From Pseudomonadota bacterium (lineage in GTDB: Bacteria; Pseudomonadota; Alphaproteobacteria; Rhodobacterales; Rhodobacteraceae), in the NCBI GenBank assembly GCA_039208585.1, contig JBCCQX010000004.1, positions 52,031-116,030 of the forward strand: a DNA stretch of 64,000 bases, written 5' to 3'. Below, piece after piece: positions 3,374 through 41,597 of this stretch (positions are counted from its first letter, which is position 1; the number at the start of each line of letters is the position of its first letter). The translations under genes were made by a program, and so were the position numbers. The notes below the pieces were generated by a model, which had not been told where the DNA came from, searched no databases, and saw nothing but the letters and a program-made list of their open reading frames with translations.

Positions 3374-4279
3374 CTAGCGGCCCAGGCAGTGGCGCATGAT
3401 GGCCTTTTGCGCGTGAAGCCGGTTCTCTGCCTCGTCAAAGATCACGGAATGCTTTCCATCCATGACTGAGCTGGTCGCCTCATCCTCGCGATGCGCGGGA
3501 AGGCAATGCATGAAGAGCGCGTCCTGCTTGGCACGGGCCATCAGCGCATCATTGACCTGATAGCCGCGCAACTGGTTGTGCCGTCGTTCGCGCGCCGATT
3601 GCGGATCATGCATCGACACCCAGGTGTCCGTGACCACAAGATCGGCGTCGCGCACCGCCGTCTCAGGATTTCTTTCGATGCGGTAGAGCCCCTGTAGCGC
3701 AGGTTCGGGATCAAGCGGGGGTGGGCCCGTGAATGTCAGGTCAAAATCAAATTGCCGTGCCGCATGGGCGAAACTGGCGAATACATTGTTGCCGTCCCCA
3801 GACCAGACCACCTTTTTGCCTTTGATGGGTCCGTTGTGTTCTTCGAAGGTCATGATATCCGCCATGATCTGGCAGGGATGAGTGCGGTTGGTCAGACCAT
3901 TGATCACCGGCACACTGGCGTATTCGGCCATCTCAAGCAATGTCTGTTCCTCGAACGTGCGGATCATGATAAGGTCAACATAGCGGCTGAGAACGCGGGC
4001 GGTATCTGCGATCGTCTCGCCGTGGCCCAATTGCATATCCGTGCCAGAAAGCACCATGGTCTGCCCCCCCATCTGGCGCACGCCGACGTCAAAACTGACC
4101 CGGGTGCGGGTCGAGGGTTTCTCGAATATCAGCGCCACCATGTGGTCTTTGAGGGGCTGTTCATCATCGGGGGCCCCTTTGGGGCGCCCCTGGCGCGCGG
4201 CCTTCATGTTGAGTGCTTGATCAATGATCTGGCGCAAGGCGGGTTTGGGCGTTTGGTCAATGTCGATAAAATGCGTCAT
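3374..4279 (-). CDS. argF: Ornithine carbamoyltransferase
   Basis: STRTR, HPCQ and FMHCLP motifs. Start trimmed to the ATG at 4279 (MTHFIDID). Confidence 0.97.
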
Positions 4280-4352: not shown

Positions 4353-5525
4353 CTATGGGGTGAGTGCCCCCGCAGCGGCGTCAAGACGATGAACCGCCTC
4401 GGCGATCTCCTCATCGCTGATGTTGAGTGGTGGCAGGATACGCACGACATGATCGGCCGCTGGCACGGTGATAACGCCCTCGGCGTAGCCCGCTTTGACC
4501 ATTTCCCCTGGCGGTATCTTGCACTTGAGCCCGAGCATCAGGCCCGACCCCCGGACCGCTTCGAAGACGGCCGGGTGATTGGCAACGAGCCCTTCCAGGC
4601 GCTGACGCAGCAGACCGGCCTTGCGGTTCACCTCGGCCAGAAAACCGGGCTCTGCCACGATGTCGAGCACCGCGCAGCCCACCGCGCAGCCCAACGGGTT
4701 GCCGCCGTAGGTCGATCCATGGGTCCCAGGCGTCATGCCTTTTGCCGCTCTCTCTGATGCCAAGACTGCGCCGAGCGGGAAGCCGCCCCCGATGCCTTTG
4801 GCCACCATCATGATGTCCGGGGCGATGCCCGCCCATTCATGCGCGAACAATCGCCCGGTGCGGCCCACGCCGCATTGCACCTCATCCAAGATCAACAATA
4901 GATCACGCGCGTCGCAGAGCGCGCGCAAGCCTTTGAGCGTTTGATCTGGGAGGAGACGTATGCCGCCTTCGCCTTGCAGGGGTTCGACCATGATCGCGCA
5001 GGTTTTTTCGGTTATCGCCGCTTCGACCGCGGCGAGATCATCGAACAGGACATGCACGAAACCGGGCAAGAGCGGGCCGAAACCCTTGGTCATTTTTTCC
5101 GACCCTGCTGCCGCGATCCCGGCGGATGAACGGCCATGAAAGGACCCTTCAAATGTGATGATCTCCACCCGCTCAGGCTCTGCCTTTTCGTAGAAATATT
5201 TGCGCGCCATTTTCACCGCAAGCTCGCAACTTTCCGTGCCGGAGTTGGTGAAAAACACCGTGTCTGCGAAACTCAGCGCGACGAGCCTGTCTGCAAGCGC
5301 TTGCTGCTGCGGGATGTGGTAGAGGTTTGAGGTATGCCAAAGTTGGCCCGCTTGACGCGTCAACGCCTCAACCAACGCGGGATGCGCATGGCCCAGGGCA
5401 TTCACCGCGATCCCCGCGCCGAGATCGAGGAAGCGTCGGCCATCCGCCTCGGTCAGCCAGGATCCAGCGCCGGCGACAAAGCTCATCGGCGCACGTGTGT
5501 AAGTCGGCAAAACGGAAGGGATCAT
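4353..5525 (-). CDS. argD: Acetylornithine aminotransferase
   Basis: Class III aminotransferase motifs ([26 protein letters not shown]), upstream of argF. Start MIPSVLPTY follows an AAGGA Shine-Dalgarno. Confidence 0.95.
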
Positions 5526-5649
5526 CTGGATCATCCTTTATAAAACCGCGAGAATGCCAAAAAGGCATGGGCGGTGTGAAGCGTCAAGGCTGTTTGGGAA
5601 AACGCGATGTTAACGCACGCGCGACCTGTTTGATCGCACCGCAAATGGG

Positions 5650-5688
5650 CTAACGTCGTCGGACAGAGATTTTTTTAACTCGTCTCAT
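5650..5688 (-). CDS. Putative Arg-rich leader peptide MRRVKKISVRRR (uORF of argD-argF)
   Basis: ATG AGA CGA GTT AAA AAA ATC TCT GTC CGA CGA CGT TAG read directly from the sequence: 5 of 12 codons are Arg, three of them consecutive before the stop. It lies directly upstream of Arg biosynthesis genes. Confidence 0.7.
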   Translation of the reverse strand: MRRVKKISVRRR

Positions 5689-5694
5689 ATCGTT

Positions 5695-5723
5695 CGCTTA
5701 GCGGCAACGCGAGCGTTTGCCAA
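5695..5723 (-). promoter_or_regulatory. Putative sigma70 promoter for the leader peptide/argDF transcript
   Basis: TTGGCA-N17-TAAGCG. The A of the uORF ATG is the 7th nt after the -10 hexamer, which suggests a leaderless transcript. Confidence 0.55.
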
Positions 5724-5771
5724 GCGTTTTCTCCGCTTGCGTTGACATCAGCGCGGGGGCAAAGACGCAGG

Positions 5772-6680
5772 ATGTTTGAAGCGAAAGCACAAAATAACGC
5801 CTTGGCCGCACTGTTGATCGTGATTGCCACCGCGTTTATTGCCGCGACAATGCTATTTGCCAAGGCGCTGAGCGATGCAACCGTTGGTACACCGCTGCAT
5901 CCTTTGCAAATCAGCCATGGGCGGTTTGCGTTCGCTTTTCTGGGGATCGCTGCTGCGGCAGCAGTGGTTCGGCCAAGAATATCGATGCCGCACTGGGATC
6001 TACATGTGGCACGCACAGCCTGCGGGTGGGCGGGATCGACCCTGATGTTTGCCTCTGTGGCTTTCATCCCCCTGGCGGATGCCACGGCCATTTCTTTTCT
6101 CAATCCCGTCTTTGGCATGATCTTGGCGATCCCGCTGCTGGGCGAGCGCGTGGGTCGCATCCGTTGGGCGGCAGCGCTGCTGGCACTCAGCGGGGCATTG
6201 ATTTTGCTACGACCGACGCCGGAGAGCTTTCAACCGGCCGCGCTTTTGGCGTTGGGCGCGGCGATGATCATGGGGCTTGAGCTGAGCTTCATCAAAAAAC
6301 TGGCGAGCCGCGAAAACCCCTTTCAGGTGCTTTTGGTCAATAATTTCCTGGGCCTGGTGATCGCCAGCATCGCGGTGATTTTCGTTTGGCAGGCACCCAA
6401 CAGCATGCAATGGCTGCTCTTGATCGCCTTGGGTCTGTGCATGGCCATTGCGCAAGCCTGTTTCATCAATGGGATGGCACGGGCCGATGCCAGCTTTGTG
6501 GCGCCTTTCAGCTATGCGACATTGATCTTTGCGGCGCTCTATGACGTCGTGTTTTACGGATTTCTACCAGATGCGATCAGCCTTTTGGGCGCGGGCATCA
6601 TTGTCGCTGGCGCTGTGATGTTGGCACTACGAGAAGGCCGCCCAAGGCCAACGCATCAACCGCATAACCAGCGGCTTTAA
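5772..6680 (+). CDS. DMT/EamA family transporter
   Basis: Multiple TM helices in two EamA repeats ('LLGERVG..RW', 'APFSYATLIFA'). Start trimmed to the ATG at 5772. Confidence 0.9.
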   Translation: MFEAKAQNNALAALLIVIATAFIAATMLFAKALSDATVGTPLHPLQISHGRFAFAFLGIAAAAAVVRPRISMPHWDLHVARTACGWAGSTLMFASVAFIPLADATAISFLNPVFGMILAIPLLGERVGRIRWAAALLALSGALILLRPTPESFQPAALLALGAAMIMGLELSFIKKLASRENPFQVLLVNNFLGLVIASIAVIFVWQAPNSMQWLLLIALGLCMAIAQACFINGMARADASFVAPFSYATLIFAALYDVVFYGFLPDAISLLGAGIIVAGAVMLALREGRPRPTHQPHNQRL

Positions 6681-40553: not shown

Positions 40554-41597
40554 TTAGGTCTGGCCAACATCGGCCTCGTAAGCCTCAATAATCGCAGCGA
40601 CTAATGGATGCCGAACCACGTCTTTAGAGGTGAAATAGTTGAAGCTGATCTTTGGGATGGCGCTTAGCAACCGCTCCGCATCGGCCAAACCCGACGAAAT
40701 TCCCCGCGGCAAATCAATCTGCGTCCGGTCCCCTGTAATCACCATGCGAGACCCTTCGCCCAGCCGTGTCAGGAACATTTTCATCTGCATCGTGGTGGCA
40801 TTCTGCGCCTCATCCAACACTACAAAGGCGTTTGAAAGCGTTCGCCCGCGCATGAAGGCCAAGGGCGCGATCTCAATCCGCTTTTCCTCGCGCAGCTTCG
40901 TCACCTGTTTGCCGGGCAAGAAATCGTTCAGCGCGTCATAGAGCGGCTGCATGTAGGGATCGACCTTTTCATCCTGCGTCCCAGGCAGAAAGCCCAGCTT
41001 TTCACCGGCTTCGACGGCTGGACGGCTCAGAATGATCCGGTCAACATGTCCGCCAATAAACATGGAGACACCGACAGCCACCGCCAGATACGTTTTCCCC
41101 GTGCCTGCAGGCCCAATCCCAAAAGCCAGTTCATGATCAAACAGCGCTTTGACGTAGGCTTTTTGCGCCTCCGTGCGGGGCTCCACCCGCTTTTTGCGGG
41201 TGTGGATCTCTACCGTTTCGCCGATGGCCATTTCGATTTGATCGCCACTGCGTACCCCCGTCTCCGGTCCGGGACCGCCCATGCGCAGCATGCTCTCAAC
41301 ATCCGCCTGTTCAACCGATCGGCCACTTTCAAGACGGGCATAGAGCGCATTCAAGATCGTGGCGGTCTGGGTCTCCGCATCCGTCTCACCCATCACGCGA
41401 AGCTGATTGCCGCGACGCAGGATCTGGACATCCAACGCCTTTTCGATGGCCGCCAAATGCGCGTCATACGCACCGCAAAGATCGATCAAAAGACGATTGT
41501 CGGGAAATTCAATAATCAACTGAGCAGTGGGCCTTTTGATGCCGTGTCGGTGTTCATTCACATAATGGCGACTTATCTCGCCCGCGCAACCGATCAA
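40554..41597 (-). CDS. phoH: PhoH-family ATPase (YbeZ-like)
   Basis: GPAGTGKTYLA, RPAVEAGE.LGFLPG, MRGRTL, DEAQN and VVRH motifs. True start uncertain (possibly the GTG at 41561). Confidence 0.92.
   Translation of the reverse strand: MIGCAGEISRHYVNEHRHGIKRPTAQLIIEFPDNRLLIDLCGAYDAHLAAIEKALDVQILRRGNQLRVMGETDAETQTATILNALYARLESGRSVEQADVESMLRMGGPGPETGVRSGDQIEMAIGETVEIHTRKKRVEPRTEAQKAYVKALFDHELAFGIGPAGTGKTYLAVAVGVSMFIGGHVDRIILSRPAVEAGEKLGFLPGTQDEKVDPYMQPLYDALNDFLPGKQVTKLREEKRIEIAPLAFMRGRTLSNAFVVLDEAQNATTMQMKMFLTRLGEGSRMVITGDRTQIDLPRGISSGLADAERLLSAIPKISFNYFTSKDVVRHPLVAAIIEAYEADVGQT

Follow-up and report, generated by a model that had tools for sequence, protein, structure and literature searches.

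A family-wide arginine-codon reading frame as a probable arginine-sensing leader of argD-argF in Rhodobacteraceae

Background

Can a reading frame of a dozen codons report the supply of arginine to the genes of its synthesis? The question is raised by the leader of argD-argF in a 64,000-nucleotide (nt) stretch of a Rhodobacteraceae genome (contig JBCCQX010000004.1 of assembly GCA_039208585.1; the whole stretch is hereafter called the window), in which a short upstream open reading frame (uORF) rich in Arg codons lies ahead of argD. A sequence-only reading of the window had proposed that this uORF is the leader peptide of an attenuator, in which stalling of the ribosome at the Arg codons would regulate arginine biosynthesis.

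The regulation of arginine synthesis in alphaproteobacteria is poorly understood. Their roseobacter group ranks with the most abundant heterotrophs of the sea and with the best studied. To our knowledge, the textbook cases of ribosome-mediated attenuation concern Trp, His, Leu, Thr, Phe and Ile/Val, and not Arg. No Arg-codon attenuator of an arginine-biosynthesis operon was found in the literature; a survey of small RNAs in Ruegeria pomeroyi does not mention argD. The repressor ArgR has been reported as absent outside Gammaproteobacteria (PMC5343134). In the window genome, tblastn retrieved no ArgR/AhrC homologue (best E = 3.8).

In this study we examine the argD leader across the family, from the reading frame, codon choice and promoter of its uORF to the RNA that follows it, and weigh the ways in which such a leader might act on argD-argF.

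Results

Conservation of the uORF

The window leader lies on the minus strand, and all coordinates are positions in the window (Table 1). The uORF reads ATG AGA CGA GTT AAA AAA ATC TCT GTC CGA CGA CGT TAG (5688-5650), which is the 12-codon Arg-rich frame that the sequence-only reading had described, and its TTGGCA-N17-TAAGCG promoter, its ATGCC/GGCAT hairpin ahead of the argD Shine-Dalgarno (SD) sequence and the argD-argF pair downstream were all found at the places given there. Judged from this genome only, the uORF could be a chance occurrence: short ATG reading frames with three consecutive arginines (RRR) arise 371 times, seven of them intergenic and ahead of a gene. No such uORF precedes another arg gene of this genome, and among the seven only that of argD adjoins an arginine gene, the downstream proteins of the other six having been judged by their first residues only. 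The window leader is no more stably folded than shuffled sequence (z = -0.62), and a consensus scan detected in it neither a terminator nor a minus-strand promoter. The significance of the uORF comes entirely from its conservation across genomes.

The window genome was assembled from a marine metagenome and belongs to Sulfitobacter. In this genus, the uORF was present in all 25 species sampled, with 10-16 codons and 163-200 nt upstream of argD, and it is kept although the argD proteins of these species are only 78-81% identical. A C-CGA-CGA-CG[CT] core is invariant among them, the N-terminal part varies, and the stop follows 0-3 codons after the core. The survey was then extended to the family, with one genome per genus and 450 nt taken from each of 148 further Rhodobacteraceae genera (145 full-length), counting ATG reading frames of at most 24 codons with at least three consecutive Arg codons and a start 215-100 nt upstream of argD. 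A uORF of this kind occurs in 86 of the 145 genera, as against 3/145 on the reverse strand and about 1/145 in shuffled sequences; when variants with two Arg codons (e.g. M..IRRA-stop) are included, the count rises to 102/145, against 3 in the control. The expectation that an alignment of argD upstream regions across Rhodobacteraceae would show a conserved Arg run and stop is thus borne out in 86-102 genera. An independent set of named genomes (Sulfitobacter, Ruegeria, Roseovarius, Tateyamaria, Marivita, Phaeobacter, Leisingera, Salipiger, Tritonibacter, Thalassovita, Planktotalea, Yoonia and others) has the uORF in 78 of 80. Across the family the uORFs comprise 9-24 codons, start with ATG, carry RRR(R) at their end and lie 105-230 nt upstream of argD. 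Genera whose argD diverges most (at most about 68% identity, and often starting with GTG) lack them.

The shorter variant, M-x(5-7)-I-R-R-A-stop (AUC CGA CGA GCC UGA), has two Arg codons and a nearly fixed C-terminus, and was seen in Salipiger, Marivita-like and other genera. AUG AUC (Met-Ile) opens most uORFs, and in many of them His-Ile or Asp-Ile (CAU AUC or GAU AUC) stands about four codons before the Arg run.

Reading frame and codon choice

The CGACGNCGN block is read with CGA as a codon by a short ATG reading frame in 84 of 85 leaders, while the other two frames were found open in this way in 0 and 1 of the 85. The distance from the ATG to the run varies, and does so by whole codons. 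Because of this frame preference, a purely non-coding repeat can be excluded. Runs comprise 3-6 codons, most often four, in uORFs with a median of 14 codons; the stop codon lies 0-5 codons after the run in 88 of 89 leaders and at most seven in all. The Arg run and the stop close to it are kept, while residues nearer the N-terminus vary, as does the length of the peptide.

The run is written almost only in the codons of a single isoacceptor, the inosine-modified tRNA-Arg(ACG/ICG). Among 350 run codons we counted 163 CGA, 171 CGC and 13 CGT, which together make up 347 (99%), besides two CGG and one AGG. Outside the run, 12 of 83 Arg codons in the same uORFs are CGG, and in the window genome as a whole Arg is encoded by CGC (43.5%), CGG (20%), CGT (17%), CGA (9.6%) and AGR (10%), so that CGA, the codon read by I:A wobble, is about five-fold enriched in the run. 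The tRNA-Arg genes detected in this genome have the anticodons ACG (two genes), CCG (two) and TCT (one). Since CGG and AGR are excluded from the run and not from the rest of the uORF, selection acts on codons and not on residues alone. In yeast, CGA repeats are translated slowly (PMC3753928).

Together, the frame and the codon bias strongly support the uORF of the argD leader as a real, family-wide and probably translated reading frame.

The promoter and the start of the transcript

In the window, the two hexamers of the putative distal promoter P1 are separated by a 17-nt spacer, and the -10 box lies 6 nt from the A of the uORF ATG. When 87 genera were anchored on this ATG, T was dominant at -35/-34, TA at -12/-11 and C at -1 (74%), the -10 box ended 6-8 nt before the A of the ATG, and no purine-rich SD sequence was seen ahead of the uORF. 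This position of the -10 box predicts a transcript that begins at the ATG or beside it, and hence, in most genera, a uORF that is probably leaderless.

Composition and folding of the leader RNA

Over about 120 nt, the sense strand of the leader is rich in C (0.40-0.45) and poorer in G (0.13-0.29). The mean GC skew of the leaders is -0.243 (89 genera) and it is negative in 99% of them; upstream of 1454 genes of the window genome it is +0.024 (standard deviation 0.127). In 68-75 of 83 leaders the sense RNA also folds less stably than the antisense RNA, by 2-4 kcal/mol. An RNA that is C-rich, G-poor and poorly structured is the signature of a site of Rho utilisation, and the window genome has a Rho gene, the product of which is 67% identical over 416 amino acids to Escherichia coli Rho. 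On the strength of this composition, the weak structure and the Rho gene, Rho-dependent attenuation is our leading guess for the way in which the leader is read out.

The leaders of the family share an order of elements, namely a helix that joins the Arg codons to sequence around or after the stop, the tetranucleotide GAUC, a GC hairpin (H1), a pyrimidine/A-rich tail (..CCAAAAUCG), TTGAC, a hairpin (H2) ending in GGGCUUC, and the SD sequence of argD. GAUC is conserved a few nt ahead of the post-stop hairpin in most genera, and a hairpin at the position of H2 is predicted in most genera. In the window, for which all hairpin energies are folding predictions in kcal/mol, the stem of H2 (5574-5546) consists of AUGCC/GGCAU inside CCGC/GCGG. 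The sequence-only reading had further suggested alternative folds between GCGATC and either GGTCGC or ATCGC, and between CGCGTG and CATCGCG ahead of TTTT. The pairings of GCGATC with GGTCGC and of CGCGTG with CATCGCG are present, the former as GCGAUC/GGUCGC in hairpin Ha (5637-5632 with 5626-5621) and the latter as the stem of hairpin Hb (5621-5603, then UUUUCCC); the idea of a switch between them found no backing in the family, in which no terminator or antiterminator is conserved, the U-tract of Hb being peculiar to this genome.

A covariance-model alignment of 52 leaders placed the Arg-codon/post-stop helix and H1 at 89.6% paired, against 79.3% in shuffles; all 13 pairs change on both sides, including all five of H1. 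A covariance-model match elsewhere in the window, at 41410-41486, lies inside a coding region and was discarded as spurious.

A possible second promoter

About 50-60 nt before argD, behind an A-rich tract, stands the TTGAC block, which is present with or without the uORF. In the divergent clade that lacks the uORF it forms part of a clear sigma-70 promoter, TTGAC-N17-GATAAC, and TTGAC is probably the -35 box of a proximal promoter, P2, with a spacer that is operator-like or forms an RNA hairpin. In genera with the uORF, the activity of P2 is uncertain, because its -10 region is atypical (..GGCAC..; TATCAC in Ruegeria) and lies within the inverted repeat of H2. A reading of the same region as a sigma-54 promoter, TGGCAC-N5-GGGC, was rejected, because the spacing varies and many genera have other bases in place of the GG at -24 (TTGCAC, ATGCAC, TATCAC).

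About 17 nt after TTGAC, GCAC is at least 90% conserved and lies inside an inverted repeat (GTGCC-N3-GGCAC in many genera). In the divergent genera without the uORF, the promoter is followed by a strong GC hairpin and a tract of 5-8 U directly before the argD SD sequence, which looks like a different 5' element at argD, either a terminator-like attenuator or a 5' stabiliser.

The locus and its neighbours

The N-terminus of argD, MIPSVLPTY, is conserved among relatives, and so is its ribosome-binding site (RBS), as AAGGAUGAUCC. The latter resembles an extended complement of the 3' end of 16S rRNA, and its GAUC recurs before H1. Within the argD-argF spacer lies a 7-bp GC hairpin without a U-tract, CUGGGGG-UGGAAAA-CCCCCAG (4322-4302, minus strand). 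The transporter gene divergent from the leader promoter weakly resembles transporters of carboxylates, amino acids and amines. A minus-strand reading frame of 161 codons (5675-6160), which overlaps the leader promoter, matched no family in a profile search and is the antisense shadow of this EamA-type gene.

Table 1. Features of the argD leader and its surroundings in the window
Feature	Position	Strand	Evidence or remark
-35-like hexamer TTGGCA of P1	5718..5723	-	sequence; T enriched at -35/-34 in 87 genera
-10-like hexamer TAAGCG of P1	5695..5700	-	sequence; TA conserved at -12/-11
Leader reading frame MRRVKKISVRRR-stop, 12 codons and TAG	5650..5688	-	sequence read; orthologues in relatives
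Arginine run CGA CGA CGT, putative sensor codons	5653..5661	-	conservation in genus and family
Hairpin Ha, GGUGCGAUC-AAACA-GGUCGCGC	5619..5640	-	-12.4 kcal/mol; contains family-conserved GAUC (5635-5632)
Hairpin Hb, CGCGUG...CAUCGCG and UUUU (weak; position of family H1)	5599..5621	-	-6.5 kcal/mol
C/A-rich tract CCCAAACAGCC, then TTGAC (5587-5583)	5583..5598	-	TTGAC identical in 78/78 aligned leaders
Hairpin H2, CCGC..AUGCC-UUUUU-GGCAU..GCGG and UUUUAU, directly before argD SD	5540..5574	-	-13.8 kcal/mol
argD ribosome-binding site AAGGA (5538-5534) and start codon ATG (5525-5523)	5523..5538	-	sequence read
argD, acetylornithine transaminase	4353..5525	-	NCBIfam NF002325, 604 bits
argF, ornithine carbamoyltransferase	3374..4279	-	NCBIfam NF001986, 409 bits; 73-nt spacer after argD
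EamA/DMT-family transporter gene, divergent	5772..6680	+	weak TIGR00950/RarD matches

Discussion

How the leader may work

Our analyses support the proposal that the argD leader encodes a peptide that senses arginine through tRNA-Arg(ICG) and controls argD-argF, to which we assign a probability of about 0.72; it draws on the conservation of the uORF in more than 100 genera, the frame of its Arg run, the restriction to codons of one isoacceptor and the fixed distance between the -10 box and the ATG. From these features of sequence we infer translation of the uORF, stalling of the ribosome, the direction of regulation and a read-out by Rho. Under this proposal, the sigma-70-type P1 would start transcription at or next to the ATG, giving a leaderless mRNA in most genera, on which a 70S ribosome would translate 9-24 codons and reach the 3-6 Arg codons lying 0-5 codons before the stop. 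A shortage of charged tRNA-Arg would hold the ribosome on the run. With an ample supply the ribosome would finish and leave; the Arg codons could then base-pair with sequence around and downstream of the stop, and the remaining leader, which is long, rich in C, poor in G and weakly structured, would be left naked. Ribosome occupancy would then decide whether transcription from P1 continues over some 110-190 nt into argD-argF, most likely by allowing or blocking Rho-dependent termination in the leader, while P2 would supply basal expression independent of arginine. That ribosome occupancy modulates Rho-dependent termination in this way is a tentative suggestion, to which we give somewhat less than even odds. 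The wider picture is more doubtful still, namely that in most Rhodobacteraceae, the roseobacter group, no repressor protein governs arginine synthesis, which is controlled instead through a leaderless and terminator-less peptide tuned to tRNA-Arg(ICG), half of whose sensor codons are CGA, and in which the held ribosome shields the C-rich leader from Rho.

Several results weigh against this account of the leader, most of them concerning its folding. Neither the genus nor the family has a GC hairpin with a conserved U-tract in the region from the uORF to argD, the tails of most other leaders being C-rich. RNAalifold found 0 pairs on MAFFT alignments of Sulfitobacter leaders and of the TTGAC-H2 block of 78 genera, in which the variable hairpins are not aligned by sequence; the mean fold z-scores of the leaders are only -0.5 to -0.9; and, as the alignment of 52 leaders was fitted to the structure tested, its pairing statistics are supportive only. 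When 82 leaders were folded by a constrained partition function, with the ribosome placed on the second Arg codon or on the stop, no consistent hairpin switch emerged: H1 forms in all states, and stalling lowers it in 11 leaders and raises it in 21, in thermodynamic models that ignore kinetics. From the stall site to the stop codon there are only 0-15 nt, which leaves little room for the classical logic of ribosome footprints. In the window, footprints at the Arg codons and at the stop are offset by only 9 nt, so that by geometry both leave Ha free and spare the same hairpins. The post-stop segment does not covary with the TTGAC block or with H2. Besides that, the C-richness of the leader could instead serve to avoid SD-like sequences, and an active P2 would leave only the P1-derived share of argD-argF transcription under the control of the leader. 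A long-range pairing of the post-stop GUCCGAUC with the AUCGUUGAC block was also considered; it could form 7 bp, but the duplex energies of cognate and non-cognate partners are equal, and it was dropped.

The leaderless start meets an exception as well. The promoter geometry that the sequence-only reading had taken as a sign of a leaderless uORF is kept in 87 genera, but in one related genome the uORF (MTLELQLRRDLPRA) is apparently not leaderless, its RNA starting about 20 nt before it. A CTTGCG-N17-CTACCT promoter in this genome (-260 to -198 region, relative to argD) predicts such a start, and contigs assembled from its RNA sequencing (RNA-seq) end at -185 to -220 from argD (at -217 and -220 in two runs), the ATG of the uORF being at -198. 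The contigs show that the leader is transcribed, and a break between leader and argD at -69 to -12 occurs in three of the six runs with short, informative contigs, the two deepest runs having given uninformative contigs of 10 kb; these breaks are compatible with premature RNA ends. In one run, a contig also shows an adapter junction at -12 relative to the start of argD, a hint that a discrete 5' end of RNA lies within the SD region.

Other explanations

The reading in which the ORF is incidental, and the CGACGC repeat serves as an operator in the DNA or in some other non-coding role, accounts for the conservation of the block at the nucleotide level and for its direct repeat, CGACGC CGACGC, but not for the single frame in which 84 of 85 leaders read it at variable distances from the ATG, for the in-frame stop that follows so closely, or for a -10 box whose position is fixed relative to the ATG and not to the repeat; it is close to refuted. 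Improbable as well, though less so, is a nascent poly-Arg peptide that senses free arginine in the style of the fungal arginine attenuator peptide or of TnaC, or else a peptide or leader RNA acting in trans in the style of peTrpL/rnTrpL. The Arg run does sit at the C-terminus of the peptide beside the stop, the uORFs of 31 of 89 leaders end in UGA-C, a stop context that terminates weakly in E. coli, and in some RNA runs of the related genome the leader RNA forms a separate contig; yet the N-terminal part and the length of the peptide vary freely, and the codons are under selection and not the residues alone, as the exclusion of CGG and AGR from the run indicates.

More serious contenders share the sensor and differ in its read-out. 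At the level of translation or mRNA stability, occupancy of the uORF would refold the leader and expose or hide the argD RBS or an RNase site, without any termination. In many predicted folds the pyrimidine tail CUUCC after H2 pairs with the SD sequence, GAUC(C) is conserved both before H1 and in the argD RBS, and there are precedents in the mycobacterial Cys uORFs (10.1101/834739), S. aureus rbfL (PMC13009471) and Salmonella speF orf34 (PMC6386406). The Arg run, however, lies 125-170 nt from the argD SD sequence and is not complementary to AAGGA, the candidate pairings amount to only 4-5 bp, and transcripts from P2 would lack most of the leader, all of which makes this route quite unlikely. 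Classical attenuation of the trp/his type, in which stalling frees an antiterminator and a ribosome at the stop allows either Hb with UUUU (5621-5599) or H2 with UUUUAU (5574-5540) to act as terminator, we hold to be a little less unlikely. Both window hairpins precede four U, Ha overlaps Hb by 1-3 nt, the post-stop hairpin has compensatory changes in most genera, and a Cys uORF ahead of cysS in Rhodobacterales uses a classical terminator (PMC8632094). Against it stand the U-tracts, which are not conserved and give way to C-rich tails in other Sulfitobacter and most genera, the weakness of Hb, the failure of the terminator scan to find any terminator, the footprint geometry by which Ha stays free with the ribosome at the first CGA as at the stop, and the constrained folds, which show no consistent switch. 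Our guess therefore ranks a Rho-dependent read-out above classical intrinsic termination, and the latter above an effect on translation or mRNA stability.

Significance

If the proposal is true, an Arg-codon leader spread across the family would supply the missing regulator of arginine synthesis and add arginine to the amino acids whose synthesis is attenuated. The argD leader could serve to study sensing specific to one isoacceptor (CGA/CGC/CGU), attenuation that dispenses with a canonical terminator, and leaderless uORFs beyond Actinobacteria. It also points to a gap in annotation, reading frames of 10-20 codons being under the cut-off of every gene caller.

Comparison with known systems

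The argD leader has no Rfam family or describing paper that we could find, and its design follows a known type of leader peptide; searches against Rfam gave no relevant match for the window leader at E <= 10 or for 20 related leaders at E <= 1. With the classical attenuators (trpL, hisL, leuL, thrL, pheL, ilvL) it shares a short reading frame before a biosynthetic operon, tandem cognate codons, a variable remainder and, as proposed here, a ribosome that senses tRNA charging. It differs from them in the amino acid, in being probably leaderless instead of led by an SD sequence, in sensor codons only 0-5 codons from the stop, in having no conserved intrinsic terminator or antiterminator, and in a probable second promoter between leader and gene. 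The fungal arginine attenuator peptide (the uORF of arg-2/CPA1), a conserved peptide of 24-25 residues that senses free arginine in the exit tunnel, controls an arginine-biosynthesis gene in response to arginine, as the argD leader would; unlike this peptide and TnaC, only the Arg run is conserved in the argD leader, and codon identity is under selection.

Rho-dependent attenuators governed by a uORF include tnaC and mgtL. In Salmonella, the speF leader peptide orf34 has two Arg codons, and both Rho and RNase G are involved (PMC6386406). As proposed for argD, consecutive Arg codons there report arginine and translation of the uORF interferes with Rho termination in a long leader, whereas orf34 has 34 codons, an SD sequence and a conserved peptide domain, serves polyamine synthesis and acts partly through RNase G; for argD, Rho is suggested by composition only. 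In S. aureus rbfL, rare Arg codons in a small uORF also sense arginine limitation, through a low-abundance tRNA; in this case there are two such codons (AGA and AGG), occlusion of the RBS lowers expression on starvation, and the target is a regulator of biofilm (PMC13009471).

Within the same order, Rhodobacterales, a uORF with Cys codons upstream of cysS, uORFC-8-2, was predicted comparatively (Brewer et al. 2021, PMC8632094), the text and one supplementary file of which do not mention the argD leader. Like the latter, it was found by comparative analysis and has tandem cognate codons inside a stem, while it differs in its U-run terminator and in controlling a tRNA synthetase. In the leaderless polycysteine short reading frames of mycobacteria (Canestrari et al. 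2020, 10.1101/834739), which belong to another phylum and another amino acid, stalling prevents a duplex that would sequester the RBS of the following gene, whereas the Arg run of the argD leader is predicted to pair with the post-stop segment and is not complementary to the argD RBS. What the two have in common is a run of cognate codons before genes for the same amino acid; the start is leaderless in mycobacteria and probably so at argD, and stalling reports the supply of the amino acid in mycobacteria and would do so at argD.

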